64,000 nt of DNA from a virus, in IMG/VR virus record IMGVR_UViG_3300042561_001059, positions 1 through 64,000 of that record. One strand, given 5' to 3'. Each line of letters starts with the position of its first letter. Position 1 is the first letter of the stretch. Below are positions 7,979 through 58,819 of this stretch, in pieces. A program made the position numbers and the translations under genes. The notes beneath the pieces were generated by a model, which saw nothing but the letters and a program-made list of their open reading frames with translations, did no database searches and had not been told where the DNA came from.

Positions 7979-8019
7979 GTACCAGGCGTGACGCCGGGGG
8001 ATCAAATCCCCCACTCAGA
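7974..8019 (+). ncRNA. minimal tRNA-like element (acceptor stem plus T-arm-like hairpin)
   Basis: TCTGAGT/ACTCAGA 7-bp stem; GGGGG-ATCAAAT-CCCCC 5-bp stem with 7-nt loop; GGCGTGACGCC hairpin. Confidence 0.45.
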
Positions 8020-8057
8020 CTTACCACCCGCTAAGGGTGGTCTACTTAATACAACTC

Positions 8058-8288
8058 ATGATGATCTACCAGCCCACAGTTGATTCCCTTGACCGTGTCG
8101 TATGGCATGGTGGTGAATCAACGCAACTTCACTATGAGAAACTATCTCATGGCAAGTGGCTTGAACGCGATGTTCAAACTCTTGGCTCTGGTCTACCCAG
8201 GGGCATGAGTGAAATGCAGGCTGAGATGGTTGAGTACTATCAACTCTCTCAACTGCTTGAACAAGAACGTACCAAGCAACTTATGTGA
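8058..8288 (+). CDS. hypothetical protein
   Basis: ATG start after a C/A-rich leader. Confidence 0.5.
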   Translation: MMIYQPTVDSLDRVVWHGGESTQLHYEKLSHGKWLERDVQTLGSGLPRGMSEMQAEMVEYYQLSQLLEQERTKQLM

Positions 8289-45638: not shown

Positions 45639-45797
45639 TTATTCAACTGGTTGAAACCACATTACGATTCCGCCTTCACGTTCGGCCCATTCTCTTGTTG
45701 CGTACGCTTCCTCTTTTGGAAGTGTTGCGCATTTTTTTTCATCACCTACATGCCAACAGATATTTACCCTGATCTTCGGGTCTCTTTTTGCTTTCAT
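45639..45797 (-). CDS. small hypothetical protein
   Basis: 52-aa ORF MKAKRDPKIRVNICW, read by hand. Confidence 0.4.
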   Translation of the reverse strand: MKAKRDPKIRVNICWHVGDEKKCATLPKEEAYATREWAEREGGIVMWFQPVE

Positions 45798-46888
45798 TTC
45801 TCAACAAGAATTGCCCATCCTGTATTTGGCCCGTCTACTTCCCAGCGACGCAACCAATTTTTGCGGCTGTATTTAATACCTTGTCCAGATTTTGGTTTTG
45901 TACTCACATAACCACCATTGCTCATATCTGCTTCTCCGTAAGGATCGTTAAAAACAAAATGCGTTGGTGTAATCCCTTTGATTACAGACCAATGTCCTCC
46001 ACCGGAAGGTTTGGCAATGGATCCTTGGTGCAGCCAACCGACAGCAAGTGGCTTGCCACTATTGATTTCACTTTCAATTAATTTTGTATTTCCATTGGAA
46101 ACAAACCTTGCATTGAGTCCCAGGTGTCTCAGTGTTTTTAGCTGAGCCATTGAATCAGTTGTATCACCAAAATTTACACGAATCTTGTTGTATTCATCAT
46201 CAGAAGCTACCTTCCCATAGAAAGCTGCAATCATTGCACAGCTAGAGGAAAAGCATTCCCTAAACCCTTTACCAGACTTATTGTCTAGTTGATAAAAATA
46301 TGGAACCGTCAATATTTTTTCATTGCTGGTAATCGGTAATGATCCCAGCTTTTCATTCATAATATTAATTAATTTTTTTGCGTATTCTGGATCTGTAGCA
46401 TATTGCTCTGTGACTAAAAGCTGGGCGCATTCATTTCTATTACTTGCTCTATTTACACCTTTATAAGTGTTGTAGTCTTTATACCAACGATCTACCAGAT
46501 ACTGAACACACGATTCAAGATCTGGAAAATCCATGAAATCATCTTTGATTTCAATCCATTTGTTATTGATAAATTCTTTTGTGCCTGCCGTACTTCCTTT
46601 ACCTTTTAATCCAAAAAAATTGTTTGTGCCAGAGGTGAACTTACCGTATCCACTTTCTAGCGCCCATTGAGCAGCAACAACTTCTGGAAATTTGGCACCT
46701 GCTTTCTTTGCAATTTTTACTAGGTCGTCCCAGGTGTTGGTTGAGTTTTCTTTTGTTCCTTGTCGGTACTGGGTGGCAAATTCCTCTAAAATTTCAGGTG
46801 AAATATTTTTTTGCAGCCACTCCCATGCATCAATTTGATGCTTTAAGTCCTTGAAGTTCTTAGCGGCATCAATAAGTTTTATTGACAT
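45794..46888 (-). CDS. endolysin: GH73 glucosaminidase plus C39-like peptidase
   Basis: AQWALESGYG, NNFFGLKG, YATDPEY; CFSSSCAM, GGHWSVI, DPYG. Confidence 0.85.
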   Translation of the reverse strand: MSIKLIDAAKNFKDLKHQIDAWEWLQKNISPEILEEFATQYRQGTKENSTNTWDDLVKIAKKAGAKFPEVVAAQWALESGYGKFTSGTNNFFGLKGKGSTAGTKEFINNKWIEIKDDFMDFPDLESCVQYLVDRWYKDYNTYKGVNRASNRNECAQLLVTEQYATDPEYAKKLINIMNEKLGSLPITSNEKILTVPYFYQLDNKSGKGFRECFSSSCAMIAAFYGKVASDDEYNKIRVNFGDTTDSMAQLKTLRHLGLNARFVSNGNTKLIESEINSGKPLAVGWLHQGSIAKPSGGGHWSVIKGITPTHFVFNDPYGEADMSNGGYVSTKPKSGQGIKYSRKNWLRRWEVDGPNTGWAILVEK

Positions 46889-46902: not shown

Positions 46903-47502
46903 CTAGTTCTCAACTGTTTCAACAAGGTCCCACTGTTGTGCTTCTTCGTTCCATTCATATTCACCAGTCTCAACTGGTTTAGCAACAGGTGCTTCCCATT
47001 TACCAGTCATTGCAACCTGGATCCAACTTGGATAAGGTTGGGTTGCATCTGAAAGTTGCGGCCAGACTGGATATTCAGGCCCGGTGATAAATGCTGCTAA
47101 CTCGTCGGTTGTCGTCGTTGCTTCAATAGCCGTAATTTTGGTGGTACATGCAAGCCGAATTGCTTGACGCCAATTCTTTGTTTCTGTATCTATTGCAATT
47201 CCTTCGTCAACTTGCCTGACGATCATCCAATCGGTTGGCAACAAAAGAGTGTATGCAGTTTGATTTGTGTTTTGGTCCCAAGTGGAAACCAATTGTGTGT
47301 GATCTTTCGGAATTAAGTGCCCTTCCGAATCGTACCCCCAATAGAACCTTTGGTCCCAAGTCGGGGGATCTGGAACTTCTTGAATGCCAATAGCTTGTTT
47401 TTCTTCCCAAGTACTAAGCTTTAGCCAATTGGCAGGATAATTAATGCCATTATGACTAAAAGCTGAGTCGGGCGCCAAGGGCCTACCATCTAAAACAAAC
47501 AT
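46903..47502 (-). CDS. tail fibre assembly/chaperone-like protein
   Basis: YPANWL, DQRFYWG, LLPTDWMIVR, WRQAIR motifs; downstream of the tail fibres. Confidence 0.6.
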   Translation of the reverse strand: MFVLDGRPLAPDSAFSHNGINYPANWLKLSTWEEKQAIGIQEVPDPPTWDQRFYWGYDSEGHLIPKDHTQLVSTWDQNTNQTAYTLLLPTDWMIVRQVDEGIAIDTETKNWRQAIRLACTTKITAIEATTTTDELAAFITGPEYPVWPQLSDATQPYPSWIQVAMTGKWEAPVAKPVETGEYEWNEEAQQWDLVETVEN

Positions 47503-47543: not shown

Positions 47544-47572
47544 TTGACTTCATCTCTAACAGCTATTAAAAT
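47544..47572 (+). promoter_or_regulatory. sigma70-type promoter of the recombinase
   Basis: TTGACT-N17-TAAAAT, 23 nt before ATG. Confidence 0.55.
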
Positions 47573-47595: not shown

Positions 47596-48450
47596 ATGTC
47601 AACTTCGATCCAAGAAGCCTGGGCCAACTTTAAAACAGAGCGCTCAATCGTCCTTTGCCCTACAAGTTTAACTTCTGATTATGTGGTGGTTGACAAGTGG
47701 TTAAAAAAATGTCCGATAACTGATCTTACTCAAGGAAGACAATTAATGACCTGGGTGCTCCAGCAGAAGCCAACCAAAACAAGTAGGCGAGTGGCTATGT
47801 ATGTCAAAAGCCTTTATCGATGGGCAACCAACGAAGATATTGCATTGGTAGAAAGAAATCCAATTTTGTCTTTTAAAATGCCCAAGGCGCCCCAGGAGGA
47901 TGAAGAAATTATTGTCATTCCTCGTAATGAGGTTTCAATTGTTATTTCAGCCCTGGAAGGAAAGTTAAGAAAACCTAAATACAATTGGGCCTTCTATTCA
48001 GAATTCATGCTGCAAACTGCCATGAGAACTGGTGAAGTAAGAGCGTTGCGCTGGGAGGACATTAAAGACAACAAGATTCTTGTCCATTCAAACTACACTC
48101 TTACTCATGGACACAAAGATTCAACAAAAACAAATCGTAAACGATGGGTTCCTCTCAACCAGCGTTGCCAAGAAATCCTAGACAAAACACCAAGAGAAGA
48201 TTCCTACATCTTTCCTTACAACAGATATGCATTTCAAAGTTATTTTTACGATCGCATGAAAGAGTTAAAGAAAGAAAACGTAATTACACATCGTTATCGT
48301 CCTTATGATTTAAGGCATACCGCAATCTCTCGTTGGATTGAATCACAAATTCCTGTTGCGCAAGTTGCTTCATGGGCTGGCAACAGCTCAGAAGTTATTT
48401 GGAAACATTATTGCAATGTGACCCAGGAATACGAAATGCCTGTTCTTTAG
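47596..48450 (+). CDS. tyrosine recombinase (Xer-sized, no arm-binding domain apparent)
   Basis: TAMRTGE (R), STKT (K), YDLRHT, AGNS, KHY (Y); 284 aa. Confidence 0.9.
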   Translation: MSTSIQEAWANFKTERSIVLCPTSLTSDYVVVDKWLKKCPITDLTQGRQLMTWVLQQKPTKTSRRVAMYVKSLYRWATNEDIALVERNPILSFKMPKAPQEDEEIIVIPRNEVSIVISALEGKLRKPKYNWAFYSEFMLQTAMRTGEVRALRWEDIKDNKILVHSNYTLTHGHKDSTKTNRKRWVPLNQRCQEILDKTPREDSYIFPYNRYAFQSYFYDRMKELKKENVITHRYRPYDLRHTAISRWIESQIPVAQVASWAGNSSEVIWKHYCNVTQEYEMPVL

Positions 48451-48459
48451 TGGAAGCGA

Positions 48460-48612
48460 CTACTGGGCTTTACCAGCAAGCGCCATTGCTCGGTTTTCTT
48501 CGTCTTTGACTGCTTGTCGGATCTGGCAAAGCACATGCTCTTCAGCCTTGGCGTTGCCGGAATCAATGGCAATCAAAAGCCTGATACAGAGTGAACGGTA
48601 ATCAGCAGGCAT
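48460..48612 (-). CDS. 50-aa cassette ORF bounded by two sites
   Basis: MPADYRSLCIRLL...AGKAQ*; its stop codon is an arm of site 48448-48462. Confidence 0.55.
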   Translation of the reverse strand: MPADYRSLCIRLLIAIDSGNAKAEEHVLCQIRQAVKDEENRAMALAGKAQ

Positions 48613-48626
48613 AAAAGTTGGAATGA

Positions 48627-48854
48627 CTACTGGGCTTCAAGCTCGGTGGCGATGGCGAGGAGTTCTTCGCGAGTGTCTTGCTGAGCGATCCAAGTTGCCT
48701 CTTCCCAGTTATCCGCGTCCATGGGCTTCCGACGCTGCGGCACCACCTCATCCGCAACAGCTCGCAGGGCGGCGGCAATCTCGTCAGCAGGTGCAGGGCA
48801 GATTTCACGCACAGCATCCAACACCGCCTGCGCGGCGGGGGAGAGGTCAGTCAT
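48627..48854 (-). CDS. hypothetical protein (MTDLSPAAQAVLDA type)
   Basis: high GC; ends ELEAQ* in site 48615-48629. Confidence 0.6.
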   Translation of the reverse strand: MTDLSPAAQAVLDAVREICPAPADEIAAALRAVADEVVPQRRKPMDADNWEEATWIAQQDTREELLAIATELEAQ

Positions 48855-49200
48855 TGATCTGCTCAAGGGCACGGAGAAGGATGTTGTAGTGAGCTGCGTC
48901 CAGTTCAGCATCTTCCAGCACTGCGATGGCCTGCTCCTTCAAGCTCTGCGGCTTGGGGCGGCGGGCGGCGCGGAGTTGCCGAGATTCACCAGACCAGCCT
49001 TCTTTATCCAGCCACTCACAGCACGCCTCCAGCTCCTGGTCGGCAGCGGCCTGGATTTCAGGTTCGCGTCGCCACCAACCCCATTGGGCAGCGCAACGGG
49101 CAATGTGATGAGCATATGGAATCGAACGATCGTCATACGCTGTGGTTTCCCACTGATGCACCAGCTCTGGCGGCGGGGTGGTGGGGTGTTGGTTAGTCAT
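48847..49200 (-). CDS. hypothetical protein, paralogue of 49193-49528
   Basis: HPTTPPPELV..DQELEAC..RRPKPQSLKEQA. Confidence 0.6.
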   Translation of the reverse strand: MTNQHPTTPPPELVHQWETTAYDDRSIPYAHHIARCAAQWGWWRREPEIQAAADQELEACCEWLDKEGWSGESRQLRAARRPKPQSLKEQAIAVLEDAELDAAHYNILLRALEQIND

Positions 49201-49528
49201 CGAGTTGCTCCAGGGCGAGGCCAATGATCTGAACGGCTTCAGTTGTGTCCATCTGAGATGCAGTGGCATCATCCAAATGCTCTAGCGCAGCCAGCGCCTG
49301 CTCCTTTAAGGTCAGCGGTTTAGGGCGACGGGTTTTGCGCAGGTCACGAGCCAGACTTTCGCCTTCGTGGAACTTAACGAACGTCACGCACGCCTCCAGC
49401 TCCTGGTCGGAACCCCATTGAGCAATAGAGGCAAAGACATCCGCGATGCCATGAGGCTCGACAAGCGAAGCCCATGCTCGTACCAGCTCTTCTGGTGGCG
49501 TGATCGGGTGCTTGTAATCTTGGGTCAT
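49193..49528 (-). CDS. hypothetical protein, paralogue of 48847-49200
   Basis: HPITPPEELV..DQELEAC..RRPKPLTLKEQA. Confidence 0.6.
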   Translation of the reverse strand: MTQDYKHPITPPEELVRAWASLVEPHGIADVFASIAQWGSDQELEACVTFVKFHEGESLARDLRKTRRPKPLTLKEQALAALEHLDDATASQMDTTEAVQIIGLALEQLDD

Positions 49529-49734
49529 CGTCGATCCTCCAATCGGCGGTCACAGGGGCAGGGTGTTAGCGCACCGCTGCTCCACCACCTTACCACCCTG
49601 CCAAGCCAGCTAACACGTCCAGCACCACGTGTTAAGAAATTGGCGTTTTGTTAACTTCAGGGGCTTGTATTGTCAACCCTATTGTCAACCTCGTCATCGT
49701 GCGCGGGCAGTAGAAGGCTTGTTCTCTAGTGGGG

Positions 49735-52700
49735 TCAGCGGGCGCGGGCGTATTGGAAGGGCGATTCGGCGAAGGCGGCGTAAATAAAAGTTGCTCCAGA
49801 TGCGTTGACGCGAGTGTCTGATGAGCGAGCTTTAAATCCATTGGAAACAATGTCAAAAGGCCATATATCTGCATCCGCCTGCGAGGAATTGAATAGCAGG
49901 TCGTTGCCTGCTGTGTTGTACGGACTCCGCGCAGCGTCGTAAACACGCCAATCGCCGGTTGAGTCGGACCTCTTGATAAAGAAATACCTCGGCCTAAACC
50001 CGGTGTACACAAACGGCCCATCCGCGCTGCCGTTGCCGGTGTAGCTGCCGAAACTAGAGTACCCGGCTACTGGGGTAAAACAGTAGCAAATATGGTCAAA
50101 GCTGTTGCCCCACCATGAGAGATCACCTCCTGTAAATACTGTTGATGTTGGTTCTGTGTTGTTCCAAGGGTATGTTTGCGTGTCTGCAGCGTTTGTCAGG
50201 TTTAACCGCAGGAATTTTGTAGCTCCTAGTGCAGAGTGGTAAACAGACCATGCGCCGCCAGCCCCTGTCGCCTTGTCGATAATCAGAGCCGGTTTGGCGC
50301 CCAAACCATGCCCCACGGTGAACGGTGATGACGTTCCCGTGTTGAACTTGACAATTGAAAATCCCGCCGTCGTGTTGGCCCTGACACTAGAAGTGATGGA
50401 GCCTTGTGTGTTCGTGACGGTGGAGCTTCCGGCGTCCCAGGTCCAGGCGACGTAGGTATTACCAGAAGCATTGACGTCACCGTCAGGATTAGAGCCCAAG
50501 GAAAACCCGCCTGAATCAAAAGACGTAAGGGAGTTGGTAAATGTCGCTTCTGCGCTTGTAGTGCTGCTGGCTAAGCGCTGTGTGGCACCTCTAACAATGT
50601 CATAAAGGGAATGGTTGCCAGTAGTATTTCTGACCTTTGCCCACACCAAATCAGGGCTAAACGCAAGCCCGGTGATGTTTTGTGTTGCCCCTGTGCCCGT
50701 ATACAGCTTCACGTCCATCACCGTATTAGGCTTTGTGACTAATGGCGCGGGCAAGTTTGTCGTGCAGAGCGCTTTGAAGCCGCTGGGGGCCGTGTAGGCG
50801 AAGGGGCGGGCACCTGCGTTAAAGACCGCACTTGTGCTGCCACCATTTCCTGTGGCGAACGTATACGGCCCGTTTGTTAGACCCGAATACGCCTGCCCTT
50901 GACTCGCGCCGTTTTTGTAAAAAGTAAGTGTTCCAGCGTCGGCATCAAAAGCAACACCGATAACATCGTTTGTAGTGTATGAGGCGCCGTAAGATGTTGC
51001 GCTGTTATTTGTGTACTTGTTCCCGTTGTCTGCGTAGTAACCCCAGCTATCAGCGTTGCCACCGATAAAAGTTGTTGCAACCGTGCCCGCGGCTCGCTGT
51101 AAGCCGAACATATTAGAGACGCTAGTGGCCGTAAATTCGCAGTACCATTTGCCACTGCTAATAGCGATAGTGCTCTGAGCGATGACCGACCCAGTGCTAG
51201 TGGCGGTCCAGTCGAGGTTTCCGTTGCTCAACGTGCAGTTGGCTTGCTTGCTGAGGGGATTGAGCGTCGCATAATTCCCCCTAACCTCACCCCCCACGCC
51301 CGTATCCGTCTGCGCCCCATTAGTGGGAACGTCTACGAGGGAATCGTTAGCCGCTGCAACCGAGCCGATAACGGTGGAACTGGGCGGGTTGAAATTGCCG
51401 GTGTACTTAGCTGCACCTACATACACACGGAAATCCTGCAGCGAACCATTGAAGTTTTGAGCTGCACCGCCATCAGTGGCGCCAATACGAATGGTAATTG
51501 AGCCTGAATCTCCGACGCTGCTTGCACTGCTGTAGGTGGATGTTTGCAGACCATTGATGTACATCGCCCAGGATGAGCCAGATCTCACAACAGCGAAGTG
51601 GCTCCACGCTCCTTGGGTCAGGTTTGTGTTTGAGCTAAGGATTGCTGAGCCGCCGCCAATTGAGTTCACAAACCAACCAAGAATTGTGTTGGCGCCTTGG
51701 CCGCAGGTCAGGTTGTAACGCCCAGCTTGCCATGTATCAGTGTTGCTGAAGATTGAACCGCCGGTTGAAGCGTTTGGATAAATCCAGCCTTCAATCGTAA
51801 AGTCAGATGAGCCAAAAACTATGTCATGCGTACCTGCAATACTCAGGAAATCGCCTGAGCCATCAAGCAAACCGCTGCTGCCATAAAACTTGCTTAGCCC
51901 GGTATTGGTCTTGGCATTACCGTTTGCCGTTACCGTTTTGGCGCTTCCACTGCCTTTGATCGTTGCGCTCTCGTCGGTAAATGTAGTCCCGTTATTAGCG
52001 CCATCCATTGGAAGCGCTAGACGAATCGAGCTGCTGTTGCTGTCTGTGCGGGTGCCGGTGCCTTTGGTTGTGCCGTAGGTGTCGGTGGTGTTGTAGATCG
52101 GCAGCGCACCAGATGCTGCAGCAACGGAAGTTGGGCCACCAGTGTTAATGCTGACGTTAAACGGGGTCCAGTTGTTCCCGTTGCCACTAGTGTCCTTCCC
52201 TAATGTGGTCGCGGTATTGCTGCTGTTGTCCGCGAACTCCAGATGCCAGCCTTGCGAGCCGTAGCTGCCGGTGTACGCCTTGGGGATAAGCTGGCCGGTA
52301 GTGGCGTCGGTTTCGGTGAAGCTGCTGGGGGTCAGCGCTTGGCCGTCGATGAAGTAGATGTCGGCTAGGTAGCCGGGGAAGAAGTTAGAAGAATTGAAAG
52401 TGTTTCTTCCAATATTGTGTGAAAGGGTAGAGTTTACGGCTGTATCTAAATTCAGTGTTGGAGCTGCGTTCGTGTCAAAGACGGTAATCTCTTCTCCGTT
52501 GACGTACATTTTTACTCTATTAGATGCGGTCGCCTGTGTGGTATCTACTGCAACCATTACATGATACCAAGCGGAAACATCCCTATAAACAGCAGTTGTA
52601 CGCCTTAGCTCAGCCGATCCAGTGCCGCATGAAAATTTATCGTTGGTAAAAGAAACCTGAAAATAGGTTCCTTCCGCCAAAGACGTTCCAACAATAAATA

Positions 52701-52908
52701 GTGCGTGCTCTCCTGATGCTTGGAGCCCACTCCGCTTCACCCATCCCGCCCAGGTCCAGGTGGTGCGGTTGCCCGCAGATGCGGGGGTGCGGGACAAGTA
52801 GGCACTGTCACTACTATTGAATCTGAGACTTCTGGAAATAGAGTATCCTCCAGCACCGCCTCCTTGTCCAGACGCGCCAATAAGACCGTTGTTGTGGAAG
52901 ATACTCAT
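49735..52908 (-). CDS. tail fibre / receptor-binding protein with ConA/LamG and SPRY-like modules
   Basis: SLRFNSSDSAYLSR, two LamG-like blocks (WYHVMVAVD, WSHFAVVR), SPRY-like GKWYCE..IGVAFDADAG; ends FAESPFQYARAR; elevated GC. Confidence 0.8.
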   Translation of the reverse strand: MSIFHNNGLIGASGQGGGAGGYSISRSLRFNSSDSAYLSRTPASAGNRTTWTWAGWVKRSGLQASGEHALFIVGTSLAEGTYFQVSFTNDKFSCGTGSAELRRTTAVYRDVSAWYHVMVAVDTTQATASNRVKMYVNGEEITVFDTNAAPTLNLDTAVNSTLSHNIGRNTFNSSNFFPGYLADIYFIDGQALTPSSFTETDATTGQLIPKAYTGSYGSQGWHLEFADNSSNTATTLGKDTSGNGNNWTPFNVSINTGGPTSVAAASGALPIYNTTDTYGTTKGTGTRTDSNSSSIRLALPMDGANNGTTFTDESATIKGSGSAKTVTANGNAKTNTGLSKFYGSSGLLDGSGDFLSIAGTHDIVFGSSDFTIEGWIYPNASTGGSIFSNTDTWQAGRYNLTCGQGANTILGWFVNSIGGGSAILSSNTNLTQGAWSHFAVVRSGSSWAMYINGLQTSTYSSASSVGDSGSITIRIGATDGGAAQNFNGSLQDFRVYVGAAKYTGNFNPPSSTVIGSVAAANDSLVDVPTNGAQTDTGVGGEVRGNYATLNPLSKQANCTLSNGNLDWTATSTGSVIAQSTIAISSGKWYCEFTATSVSNMFGLQRAAGTVATTFIGGNADSWGYYADNGNKYTNNSATSYGASYTTNDVIGVAFDADAGTLTFYKNGASQGQAYSGLTNGPYTFATGNGGSTSAVFNAGARPFAYTAPSGFKALCTTNLPAPLVTKPNTVMDVKLYTGTGATQNITGLAFSPDLVWAKVRNTTGNHSLYDIVRGATQRLASSTTSAEATFTNSLTSFDSGGFSLGSNPDGDVNASGNTYVAWTWDAGSSTVTNTQGSITSSVRANTTAGFSIVKFNTGTSSPFTVGHGLGAKPALIIDKATGAGGAWSVYHSALGATKFLRLNLTNAADTQTYPWNNTEPTSTVFTGGDLSWWGNSFDHICYCFTPVAGYSSFGSYTGNGSADGPFVYTGFRPRYFFIKRSDSTGDWRVYDAARSPYNTAGNDLLFNSSQADADIWPFDIVSNGFKARSSDTRVNASGATFIYAAFAESPFQYARAR

Positions 52909-52914
52909 TTCAAA

Positions 52915-53223
52915 TCACCAAGGAACGCCTGCTGCTTTGCTGGGACGACGCTGTTCTTCAAGTTGTGACTGAAGTGCGTCTTCAATTTCAGCCACTTTTT
53001 CGTCGCCAAATTTTTCTTTCACCCAACCAATGACCATGTCTTCGGTCAGATTGGCGAAAGAAACCATAGGAGTTTCAGGGCGCTCCAGGCCAATGGAGCC
53101 ATAAGCACCAGCGGAGTAGGTATCGTCTTTGGCGTCGACGGTGTAGTGGACGGTAAACACATAACCGTCACTGGTTTCGCGCTCAAGCTGAGCAACTTTC
53201 CAGGTAAAAGCAGTAGTCGTCAT
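52915..53223 (-). CDS. tail-fibre-associated small protein
   Basis: WKVAQLER..VFTVHY..LTEDMVIGWVK..GVPW. Confidence 0.6.
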   Translation of the reverse strand: MTTTAFTWKVAQLERETSDGYVFTVHYTVDAKDDTYSAGAYGSIGLERPETPMVSFANLTEDMVIGWVKEKFGDEKVAEIEDALQSQLEEQRRPSKAAGVPW

Positions 53224-54614
53224 GAGTAGTTGGCAGTAAAGACCGTGTGGATAGACGTGGAACTACGAACAATATAGTCCACCCTATCTACAGCGTTGGC
53301 AGCGGTACTTAGCGTGGGCGCCGTGCCACCAGGGAAGTCCCAGTAAGAACCCCAAGAAGCTGTCCTACCACCAGTTCCATCTTGAACGAGGAAGATACTT
53401 CCGCTTTGACCGGCGGTAATATTCGTGGGGTTTGCGATTGTACGTGCTCCACCCAATGTGACTGTAAAGTTACAATCTGCTGCTAAATCGGGGGTTATCG
53501 TTGCGCCATCGGTCAGTGTACCAATGACAGCAACAGCGCCATTTTGAATAGTGACAACACCATTCTGTGCAATCCTCATCCTTTCTGTTGGAGAAGAAGC
53601 GCCGTCAGCAGTAGTGGAGAACACTAGTCTGCCCGGCATATCGTTAGTGCCGGGGGTGCCGTCTACACGGCATTCAATAAGTGCAGCTCGGATGTAACCA
53701 GTTCCGTCCGCACCCGCAAATCGAATATCTCCAAGGAAATCACCATCTACAACGGAAGCAAATCCACCCGCCGTTGTTGAGCGTGTCTTTTTAAAATAAA
53801 CTGCGCCAGCAAAAGCGTCATTTGAAAAATGCCCAAAGTCCGCTGTGTAATAGTTGCTGCTGTTGGTTGTTACTTGAAGCCTTGCATCTCCTTGACCATT
53901 GGTAACGCTACTAGACGTGCCAACTAAGAGCCTGCCGGAGTTGTCGATGCGGGCGCGTTCTGATGCGGCGTTAGCCCCTCCGGTATGGATAGCAAGTGCT
54001 CCGTTGCTTCCCGAAGGTACAAGCAGTTTGGCATAATTAGAGCCCGTGATATTAAAGTTAAACGCTCTGGCTGAGTCCGCTGCTGCACCAGGGTCAAATT
54101 CAATAGTTCCCCCAACCACATCAAGGCGCCCTACAGGGCTCGTAGTGCCAATCCCTAGTCGGTTATTGGTCGCATCAAAGAAGACGCCACTTGACCCGCC
54201 AAGCTGAATATCACCGTCCGCTTGTATCTCTAGTCTCTTGGTCCCATTAGTTGAGATGGCTACTTGGTCAGCGCCTGGAGAGTAAAGACCGGTGTTGGAA
54301 TCGCCGGTAAATGAAATCGAAGGGCTTGCTGCTGAACCAGCCGCAAAAACACCAGAAGTAATGGTATATGTGCCGCCACTGATATTGGTAAAGTTACCGC
54401 TCGTAAAGGTTGCCGTGGTGCCAGTTACGGTAATACCGCTAACAGTTGTAAATGCTCCAACGGTTCCGGTAACTGTTACGCCGGAAATAGTTCCGGTACA
54501 AGTTACGTTTCCACTAAATGTTGGGTTTTGAACTAATCCAGAAATCTGAATGCTTTTGTCGACACCAGCATCTGTAAATGTGATGGTATCAACTTTAATA
54601 ATTCCGTACGGCAT
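53220..54614 (-). CDS. tail fibre protein
   Basis: PSISFTGDSNTGLYSPGADQ, LGIGTTSP, ERARIDNSGRLLVGT, DMPGRLVFSTT; C-terminal GQSGSIFLVQDGTG..APTLST. Confidence 0.8.
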   Translation of the reverse strand: MPYGIIKVDTITFTDAGVDKSIQISGLVQNPTFSGNVTCTGTISGVTVTGTVGAFTTVSGITVTGTTATFTSGNFTNISGGTYTITSGVFAAGSAASPSISFTGDSNTGLYSPGADQVAISTNGTKRLEIQADGDIQLGGSSGVFFDATNNRLGIGTTSPVGRLDVVGGTIEFDPGAAADSARAFNFNITGSNYAKLLVPSGSNGALAIHTGGANAASERARIDNSGRLLVGTSSSVTNGQGDARLQVTTNSSNYYTADFGHFSNDAFAGAVYFKKTRSTTAGGFASVVDGDFLGDIRFAGADGTGYIRAALIECRVDGTPGTNDMPGRLVFSTTADGASSPTERMRIAQNGVVTIQNGAVAVIGTLTDGATITPDLAADCNFTVTLGGARTIANPTNITAGQSGSIFLVQDGTGGRTASWGSYWDFPGGTAPTLSTAANAVDRVDYIVRSSTSIHTVFTANYS

Positions 54615-54650: not shown

Positions 54651-56462
54651 TTAAGGCAAAATAATTAACGGTCCTTTGATAATAAATCCGCTGGTGCTAC
54701 CAGAAACAACACCTGAGCATGTAATCGCTACTGTTGAACCAGAAGGCTGCGTAATATGAAGCGTTTGTCCCGTTATGTTTGTAAATAAACCCGCAGTTCC
54801 TGTAATTGTTTGACCAGATACGGTTCCGGTGACACTTATACCAGAACCAAAAAATCCAGATCCAAGGGTAAATGTATTACCGGAGAAAGTAAAGTCTCCA
54901 GAAAAACTTTGATTTGCAGCTTGTAGATATTCAAATACGCCTGAAGTACCTCTAATAATATTGCCGGTGATTGTTTGACCTGAGACTTGAGTTGTGAAGA
55001 TGCCAGAAACACTGGTAAGAGTGGTGCTGTTAATTGTGTTACCAGTGATCGTGTTGCCGCTTATCTGTGTAGTAAATACGCCGCTTACACCGCTAATCGC
55101 TTGGAAATTAATTGTTCCACCAGTGATCGTGGCACCTGTAATGCTATTGAATCCAGCAGACTGACCAGTTAACGTCGTGAACTGTCCGGTATTGCCGGTA
55201 ATTGTGGCACCTGAAATCTGAGTAGTGAAGACGCCTGATTGAAAATTTGCTATTGTTCCGGTAACGGAAGCACCTGAGATTTGAGAAGTAAATACTCCAG
55301 AAACTCCAGTGATTGTGGTGGCACGTACCGTATTTCCTGTAATGACCAGGCCGCTTAACTGACTGGTAAATACACCAGATACTCCTGTAATAGTTGTTGC
55401 ATTTACCGTATTTCCGGTAATTGCGGCGCCAGAGATTTGGCTGGTAAAGACTCCTGAAACAAAATTAGCAGTTGTACCGGTAACCGTAGTTCCAGTTACA
55501 GTAGTAAACCCTGCTGTATCACCCGTAATAACCGTGCCACTTAACCGAGTAAAAACACCGGAAGTGAAATTAGACGTGGTTCCTGTAACCGTTACTCCAC
55601 TTAAAGTTCCACTGATATTGACGCCTGACGAAAAGAATCCAGATCCAAGTACAGAAAGATTGCCTGAAACGGTCAGGTTGTTTTGAACGGTATGGCCACT
55701 GGTAACCAGAGTTCCAAAGGTTCCCGTTGTTGCGTTTACTGTATTTCCAGTGATTGTGGCCCCTGAAATACGATCGGTAAACGTACCGCTAACAGCAACA
55801 ACGTTGGTAAATCCACCGAGACTTCCGGTTACAAGCGTTCCGGAAACCTGGGTAGTAAAAACGCCTGATTGGAAATTAGCCGTAGTTCCGGTAATGGTTG
55901 TACCAGTTACGGTTGTAAATCCGGCCGTATTTCCTGTTAAAGTACCAAACTGACCAGTGGTGCCAGTAATTGTCGTTCCTGTTAACGTCCCACTTACCGT
56001 TACGCCAGACGTAAAGAAAGAGTTGCCGCGTGCAAATAAAGTTCCACTGACAGTTAAATTATTTTGAACGTTGTGTCCACTGGTGGTTAGTGTTTGGAAC
56101 GTTGCGTTTGTAGCGTTTACATTAGTTCCGGTCAGCGTGGTACCACTGATCGTACCTGTGACTGTTAAATTATTTTGTACAAAAACGGCATTGAAGTTAG
56201 CAATGCCATTGACATTAGCAGCACCAAGGGTAGTTGTTCCAGTAACTTCAAGAGTGCTGTTGATTAAAAGTGGTCCAGTCAGTACACCGCCTGTGAAAGT
56301 TAAATATTTTGTATTTAAGTAGTTTGCAAATTCAGTTAAGGTAATTTTTTTATTTTTAAGCGTCGGGTCAACTTCGAATACGTGAACAATCGTCAGCAAA
56401 TCGTCCTCTGCTAACGACCCGCCCTGAATTGAGGGCAATTCCGTAATCCTTCTATTTGACAC
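54651..56462 (-). CDS. Thr/Gly-repeat fibre-like structural protein
   Basis: many (I/V)SG.T(I/V)TG.T..F.SGVFT repeats; N-terminal RRITELP. Confidence 0.7.
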   Translation of the reverse strand: MSNRRITELPSIQGGSLAEDDLLTIVHVFEVDPTLKNKKITLTEFANYLNTKYLTFTGGVLTGPLLINSTLEVTGTTTLGAANVNGIANFNAVFVQNNLTVTGTISGTTLTGTNVNATNATFQTLTTSGHNVQNNLTVSGTLFARGNSFFTSGVTVSGTLTGTTITGTTGQFGTLTGNTAGFTTVTGTTITGTTANFQSGVFTTQVSGTLVTGSLGGFTNVVAVSGTFTDRISGATITGNTVNATTGTFGTLVTSGHTVQNNLTVSGNLSVLGSGFFSSGVNISGTLSGVTVTGTTSNFTSGVFTRLSGTVITGDTAGFTTVTGTTVTGTTANFVSGVFTSQISGAAITGNTVNATTITGVSGVFTSQLSGLVITGNTVRATTITGVSGVFTSQISGASVTGTIANFQSGVFTTQISGATITGNTGQFTTLTGQSAGFNSITGATITGGTINFQAISGVSGVFTTQISGNTITGNTINSTTLTSVSGIFTTQVSGQTITGNIIRGTSGVFEYLQAANQSFSGDFTFSGNTFTLGSGFFGSGISVTGTVSGQTITGTAGLFTNITGQTLHITQPSGSTVAITCSGVVSGSTSGFIIKGPLIILP

Positions 56463-56515
56463 CTATATCAAGCCAGTGCGTTACTTATGATTATAATCGG
56501 CACAATTTTGAAAAC

Positions 56516-56812
56516 TTATTTTATTCTGATTTCAATCTTGGGAAGATTTTCGGAAGCCACCTTCCATGCGAACTGAAAGCCTGTTACAATTCCGGTTGAA
56601 ATACAAAGAATTAATAAAAGTTCTGCAACAGTCAGATTGCGCCTAACGTAAACAACTTGCGGGGCTGGTCCCAGGGGGCGTTGAATGCGTCCTTCTTCTA
56701 ACAAGGTTTGTTGGATAGCAAGCTCTCGTGCTTTCGCCTTCATTGCTTCAAGTTGTTCAGGTGTGATCTGAGGGGGCAGCGGGGGCTGGCTGGTAGGAAC
56801 TTGTTCTTCCAT
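56516..56812 (-). CDS. hypothetical membrane protein
   Basis: single C-terminal TM helix. Confidence 0.5.
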   Translation of the reverse strand: MEEQVPTSQPPLPPQITPEQLEAMKAKARELAIQQTLLEEGRIQRPLGPAPQVVYVRRNLTVAELLLILCISTGIVTGFQFAWKVASENLPKIEIRIK

Positions 56813-56866
56813 AATCATGCAAAACGTTTACAAAAAGACTAGCATCTAAACAGATTAATTGTTGTA

Positions 56867-57352
56867 ATGACTCAAGGATTAAGAAAAGGATTGCTAGACA
56901 TTGCACATGAATTGAAGGGAATTAGGAATATCCTTTCAAGTATGTGGCATTCACGTTACCAAGACGGAGAAACGGACCGCATCAATCCTGAAGTTTACGC
57001 AGATGAATACATCTCTACTGATGAGTGCGCCCGAAGGCTGGGCGTATCTGATCAGACGATTAGGAACTGGATTCTTACAGGAAAAAAACGACCGGATTCT
57101 GGCTGGGTGTACGGGTTACACTACATCAATATCAGTCCTGTCGGTGGAAACAAACAGATTATTCGTATTCCTTGGAATAATTTGATCCAAAGTTTCACAA
57201 AGGATACCATTCCTGGGTACAGGAGCTTTATGGAGAAAGATGTTGTCAAATATAGCTCTCAAATTCGAGAAGAAAAAGATTCTCACATCCCCAACCCCTC
57301 TGTTCCCAAGACTCCTGACTTTGACGACCCGGATATTACAGAGGAGTTGTGA
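56867..57352 (+). CDS. MerR/excisionase-like HTH protein
   Basis: ISTDECARRLGVSDQTIRNWI. Confidence 0.65.
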   Translation: MTQGLRKGLLDIAHELKGIRNILSSMWHSRYQDGETDRINPEVYADEYISTDECARRLGVSDQTIRNWILTGKKRPDSGWVYGLHYINISPVGGNKQIIRIPWNNLIQSFTKDTIPGYRSFMEKDVVKYSSQIREEKDSHIPNPSVPKTPDFDDPDITEEL

Positions 57353-57810
57353 TGACGCACCGATTTGACGGCTGGTCTATAGAAGATGTAACAATTGAAA
57401 ACTTCACGGATCTACTTCCGGCCTCCCTTTCGGTGCAAATAGAAATTTTTTTGCCTCCTTCTGGGTCCTTTGATACTCCCATCCTGCGCAGATACCTCGA
57501 AAACTTAAAAAATTATGAAGAAGAAGACCCTACTTTTGCTATGACACTAGCAAACAGATTGCGTGTGGCTTTCCAGGACATGGGACCAGATACAATCTGT
57601 GGTAAATTCCCCAACGCAGATTTGCCTTTGAAACGTAGGCTCAGATGTGTTGCCGAATATTTGATTAGAGCCGGAGAATTTGATAAGCTTCGGGATGAGA
57701 ACGGCAAACTAATTAAAAAACGGGGAATTCTCGGAAAACTTGTCGTTATCTACCAGCCGCTACCTAAAATGCGGGAAACCCTAGTTCGTCAAGGATTGAT
57801 AAAGAAATGA
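57349..57810 (+). CDS. hypothetical protein
   Basis: 153 aa, coupled to neighbours. Confidence 0.55.
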   Translation: MMTHRFDGWSIEDVTIENFTDLLPASLSVQIEIFLPPSGSFDTPILRRYLENLKNYEEEDPTFAMTLANRLRVAFQDMGPDTICGKFPNADLPLKRRLRCVAEYLIRAGEFDKLRDENGKLIKKRGILGKLVVIYQPLPKMRETLVRQGLIKK

Positions 57811-58193
57811 ACCGACGCGAAAAATTGATTGCCTCTGTGATTGGTCCGGAGCTTGATCAAGATAAAGCAAAGATGCTGGATACGACGCTTAAATTAATCC
57901 TTGGCGATATGGGCCAGATGTTTTCTAAGTTCTGGGAAGCTGAAGGGCCTGGCGTTATGTGCTTTCAGCCTGAGCAAGTTGAGAAATCAATGTTTTATTT
58001 GACATTGAAAGAGCTTCACAGTGCACAAGAGGAGTGCGAGCGAGAAAATAATGGTGATCTTGCTGAAACTTTTGGGCGCATTCTCCAGGCTGCACAAAAA
58101 ATTGACCCAGAAGAAAGCGCTGGTTACATCTTGAACGACAAAGACGGCATTCGTTTTCTTGCTGTTGATTACAACAAGGTCTCTGAGTCCTGA
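57807..58193 (+). CDS. hypothetical protein
   Basis: 128 aa, coupled to neighbours. Confidence 0.55.
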   Translation: MNRREKLIASVIGPELDQDKAKMLDTTLKLILGDMGQMFSKFWEAEGPGVMCFQPEQVEKSMFYLTLKELHSAQEECERENNGDLAETFGRILQAAQKIDPEESAGYILNDKDGIRFLAVDYNKVSES

Positions 58194-58786
58194 TGGCTGC
58201 TTTTATTGGGAACAAATTAGTTGAAGACTATGAGTGGATCAGCTCAAGAGATATGATTGACTCTGCTCATCTCGTGATGGGTGGCGTTGATTTGGATCCG
58301 GCTAGTTCAACTAAAGCAAATGAATACGTCAACGCAAAAAAATACTACACTCCCCTTGAAGACGGATTAAATGAACAGGAGTGGTTTGGAAATGTTTATT
58401 TATTTCCACCAAAACACTCTTATTTCTGGCATAGCAAATCTCAACGATGGAAAATGACGCGTGGTTTGTCTCCTACGTTGACTTCTAGCTATTCCATTTG
58501 GTGGAGAACGCTGAAAAGAAAGTGGCTATCTGGTGAAGTTGAGCAAGGTATTTATTTTGCTAATGCACCAGACATGTTTATGTATTGCCAGGACATATTC
58601 GATCACCCCATTTGCATCTTCAGAACTCGTCCAATGTTGACGCAACATTTTCACCACACTGGTGAAATAAAAACACGTACGACTTGTACTTCGTTTGCAA
58701 TCTTTTTGCAGCCCAGAAGGAATGTAGAGGATGCCAGGCAACATTTTGTTGAAGTCTATGGCGAAATGGGTCGCATTCTTATTTAA
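58193..58786 (+). CDS. phage N6-adenine methyltransferase-like protein with altered motif IV
   Basis: VDLDPASS..AN, EDGLNEQEWFGNVYLFPP (FPPK in place of NPPY). Confidence 0.6.
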   Translation: MAAFIGNKLVEDYEWISSRDMIDSAHLVMGGVDLDPASSTKANEYVNAKKYYTPLEDGLNEQEWFGNVYLFPPKHSYFWHSKSQRWKMTRGLSPTLTSSYSIWWRTLKRKWLSGEVEQGIYFANAPDMFMYCQDIFDHPICIFRTRPMLTQHFHHTGEIKTRTTCTSFAIFLQPRRNVEDARQHFVEVYGEMGRILI

Positions 58787-58819
58787 ACAAGCTAAGATCT
58801 TAAAGCTTCAGTCAAATTT

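Follow-up and report, generated by a model that had tools for sequence, protein, structure and literature searches.

A conserved junction element bounds the small-gene modules of a hypervariable locus beside a tyrosine recombinase gene in a freshwater cyanophage

Four small genes of a freshwater cyanophage (IMG/VR record IMGVR_UViG_3300042561_001059) form a single minus-strand operon between the stops of a tail-fibre gene and a tyrosine recombinase gene, with which they are convergent, and modules of this operon end in a short conserved junction element of the form [T/A]AG-N9-CTA. The genome is a single virus contig of 83,534 bp, rated 100% complete, and the stretch analyzed here, its first 64 kb, is called the window in what follows. 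This stretch is present in 24 runs, whose source is lake-water metagenomes, and the few nucleotide matches of the genome have Synechococcus phages as their targets. Among related phages the gene content of the locus is highly variable, and homology breaks off at the elements. The explanation that we put first, tentatively, is that this is an accessory hypervariable locus in which modules are exchanged at the conserved element, in the manner of the promoter and stem-loop cassettes (PeSLs) of T4-type phages, with the recombinase gene as one more module. Capture of genes by the recombinase comes second, as a possibility that we rate lower.

The junction element

The recombinase gene (284 aa, 47596-48450, plus strand) ends in a TAG (48448-48450) that is also the left arm of junction element 1 (TAG-N9-CTA, TAGTGGAAGCGACTA, 48448-48462), and the right arm of this element (plus-strand CTA, 48460-48462) is the TAG stop of ORF50. 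As an earlier note on this DNA had described, ORF50 (50 aa, 48460-48612, minus strand) fills the space up to junction element 2 (AAG-N9-CTA, AAGTTGGAATGACTA, 48615-48629): its ATG, at 48610-48612, lies 2 nt from element 2, and the stop of the next gene, ORF75 (75 aa, 48627-48854, minus strand), lies inside that element at 48627-48629. Two more minus-strand genes, ORF117 (117 aa, 48847-49200) and ORF111 (111 aa, 49193-49528), complete the operon. They are followed by a leader (49529-49713, minus strand), which judging by its similarity to relatives probably holds the operon promoter, and by junction element 3, or fibre-end element (AAG GCTTGTTCT CTA, 49714-49728). The tail-fibre gene (1057 aa, 49735-52908, minus strand) has its stop at 49735-49737, so that the leader region between ORF111 and this gene measures 206 nt. 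The earlier note had taken CTAGTGGGG, at 49726-49734 by the fibre stop, for a half-site; the sequence is there, and it proves to be the right part of the full element at 49714-49728. That the block is GC-rich relative to the recombinase gene is borne out, with a GC content of 0.575 for 48451-49734, 0.401 for the recombinase gene, and 0.429 for the whole genome.

In general, the element spans ~15-20 bp and commonly reads TAGTG-N5-GACTA followed by CTGGG, which also follows a site inside the fibre gene at 50055. The CTA doubles as the TAG stop codon of the module itself, and from the far arm it is 0-12 nt to the start of the following gene. ORF50 and ORF75 both end in AQ* and have a common flank, as originally noticed. 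The 13-mer GACTACTGGGCTT, which occurs exactly twice in the window (48458 and 48625), forms the core of a direct repeat of 22 nt whose two copies agree at 18/22 positions and lie 167 nt apart. By eye, the 3' end of the recombinase gene (48438-48453) and the fibre-end element (49717-49732) also form a 14/16 direct repeat around the four-gene block.

The motif is concentrated in this part of the genome, and its spacing is specific. Of the 19 TAG-N9-CTA copies in the 83,534-bp genome, 13 fall within 48448-54262 (Poisson P ~2e-11), where each of the other spacings from N3 to N15 is found 0-2 times. None of the six sites elsewhere in the genome ends an open reading frame, so the element is no general intercistronic signal of this phage. 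Across relatives there are 98 copies at the N9 spacing versus 7-47 at other spacings. When the genome and 54 related loci were searched with the right half of the element only (G[AT]CTAC[TG][GA]GG), the unconstrained left triplet was TAG or AAG in 20 of 28 distinct matches, and 51 of 54 matches were on one strand.

We called genes by dynamic programming in 16 arrays, obtaining 82 genes, of which 22 end in TAG-N9-CT[AT] (about one would be expected by chance, by hand arithmetic) and three in variants of it. Among the remaining genes, 21 are coupled to the next gene by an overlap or a gap of at most 4 nt, and 36 end otherwise. The elements therefore mark off units of one to three genes and not every gene. 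The 22 element-ended genes, unrelated ones included, carry at least 12 different N9 sequences, and this motif common to the spacers of unrelated modules is the non-trivial point. A consensus scan called no promoter or terminator at 48448-48462, 48615-48629, or 49714-49728, and no attC-like folding was found when 81-nt windows over the three junctions were folded as DNA on both strands (z-scores of -0.42 to +1.43). Some N9 variants (L019 at 8853, L053 at 102, and L001 at 8976) are purine-rich on the recombinase strand, which is opposite to that of the small genes, and have no start codon after them; we take these to resemble ribosome-binding sites.

Variation among relatives and in lakes

Scanning IMG/VR with the recombinase yielded 54 loci, 62-90% identical, and a second scan with the fibre C-terminus yielded 33 loci. 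The interval that we compared runs from the fibre stop to the recombinase gene or to the gene for a 199-aa protein, here named p199 (46903-47502, minus strand), and it holds from 0 to ~10 genes across relatives. In 35 distinct loci with both ends visible, it measures 6-5208 nt, duplicates and the contig-end rows L051, L180, L190, L192, L195, L199, L202, L203, and L205 being left out of this count.

Homology breakpoints lie within 0-9 nt of elements. L053 matches 48449-48651 at 93.6%, and ORF50 is there the fifth called gene from the recombinase, with a different left neighbor. Its product is 96% identical to that of the window in this different context, and the codon differences are 10 synonymous versus 2 nonsynonymous. 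Homology begins at 48615 in L017 and L018 and at 48616 in L020-L022, each with a different left neighbor, and with nine relatives (including L004, L015, L017, L022, L027, L028, L031, and L040) it begins at 49715-49720. The closest relative, L001, is ~90% identical in the endolysin, p199, and recombinase, its fibre is only 34-37% identical, and nucleotide homology is wholly lost after 48466. Because the L001 homology stops there and the fibre diverges, element 1 is also a major mosaic breakpoint. In L015, L027, L028, L031, and others, the recombinase stop passes directly into TAA CCTTGTTCT CTA GTGGGG and then the fibre stop, and the latter part of this junction equals window sequence 49718-49737. 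Since these phages join the two directly, the four-gene block of the window is, by comparison with them, an insert that separates the recombinase stop from the fibre-end element. The earlier note had predicted that gene content beside the recombinase would vary among relatives, with boundaries exactly at the site. Gene content there is highly variable, and the boundaries of indels and replacements coincide with elements in the relatives, in contigs from lakes, and between the loci L181 and L183.

L017 (8494-8750), L181 (7330-7600), and L183 (2560-2830) also have a small antisense gene, placed between the array and either the recombinase or p199. In L017, it is on the recombinase strand and its product begins with MTDE; it is another movable unit of the locus.

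For the lake populations, we mapped Logan contigs of four runs (X2, X4, X7, and X16) onto 47600-50600. Contigs of X2, X4, and X7 span the window arrangement of recombinase end, ORF50, and element 2 without differences, and because they show it identically, the arrangement is no assembly artefact. The part from 48644 to 50400 is broken into short contigs in the lake runs, as expected if variants have segments in common. Joints were seen at 1) 48463->48616, where ORF50 is replaced as in L022, 2) 48470->48615, which reads as another ORF50 replacement, 3) 48854->49714 with 17 nt between, which is the L181 arrangement, and 4) 49607->49718, which is L017-like. Loose contig ends lie at 48446 (a variant contig of X4), 48624 (X7), and 49718. 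In X16, two contigs match only 48449-48611 and 48441-48612, and ORF50 is therefore a unit bounded on both sides. Since the sides of the joints are short (21-48 nt), which is weak in metagenomes, we relied on a joint only where IMG/VR loci show the same arrangement. There is no circle junction among the joints listed, which come from contigs only and as such cannot show rare forms.

Loci without the recombinase

Elements and element-bounded cassettes are also found without the recombinase. In L179, L181-L185, L188, and L189, the element is present and the recombinase is absent from the locus. The order is simply fibre, fibre-end element, and p199 in L179, L182, L185, L188, and L189; in L183, the element is followed by the antisense small gene. 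The sequence of element 3 itself recurs in L179, L182, and L183, next to p199. L181 equals L183 plus an inserted ORF75 module, which sits immediately behind the CT[AT] arm of the fibre-end element and ends in an element of its own. In L184, a phrog_32006 gene and ORF75 end in an element just before p199.

The same holds at the level of whole records. In five of these with element-terminated ORF75 genes, we found neither a recombinase relative nor any PF00589 protein (0/5); G000, the positive control, gave a match. The five include G003, a 100%-complete genome in which TAG-N9-CTT and then DUF7936 come after the fibre gene, in the position that the recombinase has in phages resembling the freshwater Synechococcus siphovirus S-LBS1 (L042-L050). 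G001, the record of L233, also lacks the recombinase and has a genome-wide excess of the N9 spacing (22 versus 3-14 at other spacings), for which complete G003 shows no enrichment (7 versus 0-13). At 55400-58800, G001 has three phrog_32006/ORF75 units in tandem, with TAG-N9-CTA elements between them. In IMG/VR, 9 of 68 distinct contexts of the ORF75 family end in TAG-N9-CT[AT], one of these nine having the recombinase within 5 kb, and the other 59 lack the element and mostly have overlapping TGA stops.

These findings bear on how the small genes come and go. The earlier note had proposed that genes are captured one at a time at a site overlapping the recombinase 3' end. ORF50 is indeed a discrete unit of ~165 bp that occurs in at least four contexts; ORF111, ORF117, and ORF75 are translationally coupled and move together as a unit. 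Insertions are found at the fibre-end element and at internal elements as well, so that capture is not limited to the proposed location. Nor is a role of the enzyme supported: nothing links the recombinase to the events, and L181 and L184 have element-bounded cassettes without it.

The recombinase

The recombinase matches PF00589 with 60.6 bits (cut-off of 27.1, E 2.2e-16) over profile positions 22-169 of 172 and the phrog_1 integrase family with E 1.2e-37, and it is the sole PF00589 match in the 100%-complete genome (61.3 bits in the genome-wide search). We take the C-terminal Tyr in WKHY and the Arg residues in MRTGE and DLRH to be catalytic. It is not of the IntI type: with NCBIfam models it scores 31 bits for XerD (cut-off of 329.6), 29.6 for XerA/integron-integrase (220), and 27.2 for XerC (335). 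The PDB has no sequence match to it. The closest named recombinase is the S-LBS1 integrase, with 68% identity. Searching one genome per species for 185,579 prokaryote species, by a method that detects close relatives only, gave two distant matches (24-26% identity), which sit in metagenome-assembled genomes of a Lacrimispora and a Saprospiraceae. A promoter-like site, TTGACT-17-TAAAAT with 10/12 matches, lies ahead of the gene at 47544-47572 on the plus strand and is called on its match to the consensus.

The stop codon of the recombinase (TAG or TAA) is the left arm of an element in 28 of the 54 loci, near-duplicates included, and at the stops of the nine recombinase genes that end in TGA (including L005, L007, L016-L018, L025, L026, and L052) there is no regular TA[AG]-N9-CTA element. 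A second architecture is seen in the S-LBS1-type phages L042-L050, where the element is found ~60 nt ahead of the recombinase ATG and coincides exactly with the stops of two unrelated genes upstream. S-LBS1 itself has six TAG-N9-CTA sites in 34.6 kb, of which three are inside its fibre gene and one precedes the recombinase ATG by 10 nt. There is no second element on the p199 side of the recombinase in 19 loci, i.e., the element lies on one side only. In L052, a remnant of the recombinase was seen at 8001-8246, where only residues ~3-30 and 194-284 match, with the fibre gene directly adjacent.

The small genes and their leader

None of the four small proteins has a match in Pfam, NCBIfam, or PADLOC, and PHROGs gives only phrog_32006, a family with no assigned function, to which ORF117 (E 2.5e-22) and ORF111 (E 2.9e-17) belong. 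These two paralogues are a tandem duplication with internal repeats D1, D4, and D5, including a 23-nt exact repeat, and in L017 a single gene matches the 3' part of ORF117 and the 5' part of ORF111. Their coupling with ORF75 is visible in 8-nt overlaps, ATGACTAA between ORF111 and ORF117 and ATGACTGA between ORF117 and ORF75. The frame of ORF75 extends over 48627-48911 (94 aa); it is the 75-aa form, starting from 48854, that fits the homologues and has its start in an overlap with the upstream stop (ATGACTGA). All neighbors of ORF117 in the protein atlas are viral (100%), in unnamed clusters, and it has homologues in early/replication regions of the lytic cyanophages S-CBS2 and S-RIP1.

The family of ORF75 is large and phage-borne: there are 1010 homologues at E<=0.001, with no function names other than two isolated, unrelated enzyme labels from one source. 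Its members (P0002-P0120) have a conserved ~40-aa N-terminal segment and a conserved C-terminal helix, and the middle is wholly different between members, a pattern suggestive of diversifying selection. The ELEAQ* end is conserved in the family, with 17 of 31 fetched members ending in Q. As to what the four small proteins do, a role in host take-over or counter-defence would be a guess.

Within the leader region, the segment 49482-49607 is 77-92% identical in L017, L019, L020/L022, and L053. Direct reading shows GGAGGA 6 nt ahead of the ORF111 ATG and two minus-strand TTGACA hexamers (49671-49676 and 49683-49688); the consensus promoter scan called no promoter in the leader at 49529-49713. A 12-nt inverted repeat (49557-49568/49591-49602) lies inside the segment conserved in those relatives and could be a hairpin with a regulatory role.

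The tail-fibre genes and the genomic surroundings

The motif is also in excess inside the fibre genes. The large fibre gene, which has DUF7483, Laminin_G_3, and SPRY domains (Pfam) and matches tail fibre/virion structural protein families of PHROG, contains eight internal TAG-N9-CTA sites versus 0.66 expected when synonymous codons are shuffled while keeping the protein and the codon usage (0 of 2000 shuffles reach 8). By the same shuffle, the second fibre gene (53220-54614) contains four versus 0.81 (P=0.006), and the excess in the S-LBS1 fibre gene is marginal (3 versus 0.89, P=0.048). The fibre sites (49735-54614) lie in conserved linker peptides, eight in codon phase 1 and four in phase 2, and they are kept at homologous positions in relatives, also in loci without the recombinase.

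We found no sign that these internal sites are breakpoints in the cases compared: a LamG insertion (aa ~262-518) lies 6-20 aa off the nearest sites, and blocks at least 93% identical with L017 and L053 mostly end 60-215 nt off. This Laminin_G_3 (ConA-like) insertion of ~260 aa, at ~51360-52125 of the large fibre gene, is absent in six of seven aligned relatives, and L017 has a different, shorter insert at its position. No inverted fibre fragments were found by tblastn between the fibre and recombinase genes of the window.

Around the locus, a DUF7936 gene lies between the two fibre genes, and the endolysin gene (45794-46888, minus strand) lies beyond p199.

Discussion

How might such a locus work? 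Under the explanation that we put first, the locus of this freshwater cyanophage family, between the tail-fibre stop and the p199 and endolysin genes, would be an operon built of element-ended modules that are inserted, deleted, and replaced at the elements when related phages meet. The boundary would be set by the element and not by the neighboring recombinase: general or short-homology recombination functions may act between the short conserved elements, and selection may then favor intact stop/start spacers, as in the PeSL logic of T4-type phages. The element would be where crossing over takes place, and not just the one spacer that happens to be available. This exchange is ranked first because 1) elements and cassettes occur without a tyrosine recombinase, 2) the arms are short, 3) the spacers differ, 4) the element is one-sided, and 5) the fibre sites lie off the breakpoints. 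The recombinase gene itself behaves like one more insert at this hotspot.

Several points weigh against such an exchange. PeSLs are promoter/terminator units, whereas the element here has no promoter, terminator, or hairpin, i.e., no known expression function. With two parts at a fixed N9 spacing, it looks like a site recognized by a protein. Elements have ~10 conserved positions, and the two that flank the L181 insertion have only ~5 nt in common, which is too little for efficient homologous recombination. Because spacers are only ~14 nt, breakpoints at an element are also partly forced by gene packing. Finally, the recombinase adjoins an element in both architectures, that of the cultured phage S-LBS1 included, and arrays of at least 100 nt are commoner with the recombinase (10 of 19 versus 3 of 16 loci; Fisher P=0.08, uncorrected for relatedness).

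Some of these points would be explained by a recombinase-driven cassette system, which is possible and in our estimate second in rank. The 284-aa enzyme would recognize [T/A]AG-N9-CTA and insert, excise, and swap modules, in cis or in trans during co-infection; arrays without it would be like integron-less attC clusters, and its own gene would have spread by the same reaction. Besides the bipartite site, whose left triplet fits in most right-half matches, and the larger and commoner arrays near the enzyme, it would account for the precise junctions between elements with so little sequence in common. It would also fit the tie between the recombinase stop and the left arm, which is lost in the genes ending in TGA, and the element near the recombinase ATG in the second architecture and in S-LBS1. 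For S-LBS1, lysogeny was not found (PMC6157547), and the prokaryote collection contains no close homologue within the reach of a search for close relatives; the recombinase is therefore without a demonstrated integrative role. There is also a precedent in the Rin shufflon of bifidobacterial prophages, where a phage tyrosine recombinase with 11-bp sites is encoded beside a tail-fibre/receptor-binding gene (PMC6109161). What argues against this system is that elements and bounded cassettes occur where no tyrosine recombinase is encoded, including one complete genome, that only one of nine element-bearing ORF75 contexts has the recombinase within 5 kb, and that elements are found on one side of the recombinase only. 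Moreover, the N9 differs between partners and the arms are only 3-5 bp, and simple tyrosine recombinases usually depend on longer arms and on overlap regions that are identical. The fibre-internal sites are off the breakpoints tested. In its widest form, this alternative would have a family of small cyanophage tyrosine recombinases run a virus-owned, integron-like cassette system without attC hairpins at the 15-bp TAG-N9-CTA, capturing and swapping small genes beside the tail-fibre gene, spreading its own gene, and perhaps also exchanging receptor-binding modules between co-infecting phages via in-frame sites in conserved fibre linkers. We consider this form doubtful, too.

It is improbable that the recombinase is a bystander and that TAG-N9-CTA is the target of some other sequence-specific factor of phage or host (for instance a nuclease of the nicking or homing type, or a DNA-binding protein) that stimulates recombination there. 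Such a factor would fit the motif excess inside the fibre genes and the N9 excess across G001 and the relatives, but no candidate protein was found, complete G003 has no genome-wide excess, and the fibre signal of S-LBS1 is marginal.

An ordinary temperate layout seems less probable still. In lambda-type phages, accessory genes lie between the tail-fibre genes and the integrase, in the b region and as morons. The order of fibre, accessory genes, site, and integrase resembles this, and with a GC content so far above that of the genome the small genes could be morons or host DNA from aberrant excision, the element region being attP. However, across relatives 62-90% identical there is no conserved core adjoining the recombinase beyond the 15-20-bp element, and no prophage copies were found in the close-relative search of prokaryote genomes. 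Here a repeated element bounds the modules, the families of the small genes are viral, with homologues in lytic cyanophages, and the same cassettes occur without any integrase. Least probable of all is that there is no special element and that the repeat reflects common descent of gene 3' ends and tight packing: the ELEAQ* end is conserved and many element copies are homologous to one another, but unrelated genes carry the element with different N9 sequences, it is missing from most contexts of the ORF75 family, and its spacing is specifically N9.

How does this locus compare with known systems? PeSL cassettes of T4-type phages have reportedly also been treated by Comeau et al. in 2014. In the account of Arbiol et al. 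(2010, PMC2839356), T4-type PeSLs are promoter and stem-loop terminator units that flank modules, and mini-circles are described. As in that account, a short conserved intergenic motif flanks small nonessential ORFs (open reading frames) in a hyperplastic region and bounds indels or replacements between close relatives (here the window versus L001, L017, L022, and L053, and L181 versus L183); exchange between neighboring motifs was there proposed to release small circles. The element here differs in being ~15-20 bp long and bipartite, in having no hairpin or promoter, in holding the stop codon of the upstream gene, and in lying beside a tyrosine recombinase gene. It is thus no PeSL, lacking both the sigma-70 promoter and the terminator of these cassettes.

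The likeness to integrons lies in a tyrosine recombinase gene at the end of an array of small, mostly promoterless genes that end in a repeated element, with presence or absence at element boundaries and with arrays that also occur without the recombinase. The earlier note had called the array integron-like without attC hairpins. Hairpins are indeed absent and boundaries do fall at a repeated site; the features that define an integron are missing. There is no IntI-type protein, the element is only 15-20 bp, the carrier is a lytic-looking phage, and some units hold two or three coupled genes. In an integron, attI and the promoter Pc adjoin intI and the cassettes are read away from it; here the genes converge on the recombinase, with the conserved leader and probable promoter at the far, fibre end (49482-49713). 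With no IntI-type protein, no attC fold, and the opposite gene polarity, the locus is not an integron. The Rin and Min/Gin/Cin systems resemble it in having a phage recombinase gene directly beside a fibre gene and very short repeated sites. They differ in that they invert fibre C-terminal segments between inverted sites, whereas here unrelated small genes move, and a shufflon is rejected on the one-strand orientation of the right-half matches and the lack of alternative fibre segments. On our analysis, then, the locus appears to work most like PeSL modular shuffling and to look most like an integron. The literature that we searched, supplementary files aside, describes neither this element nor, in cyanophages, any cassette array linked to a recombinase.

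Hypervariable islands of small uncharacterized genes are a major unexplained part of phage genomes, and their turnover is rarely visible at nucleotide resolution. This locus offers 1) a defined element of 15-20 bp, 2) dozens of natural variants, 3) variants that co-occur in lakes, and 4) a cultured phage, S-LBS1, with both the recombinase and a site. Because of these four assets together, the choice between a site-specific enzyme and short-homology exchange can be tested directly. Should the recombinase prove to be the catalyst, the locus would be a cassette-capture system owned by a virus and would provide a compact new tool for recombination; otherwise, PeSL-type shuffling would extend to an unrelated phage group, with a much smaller, nonregulatory element.

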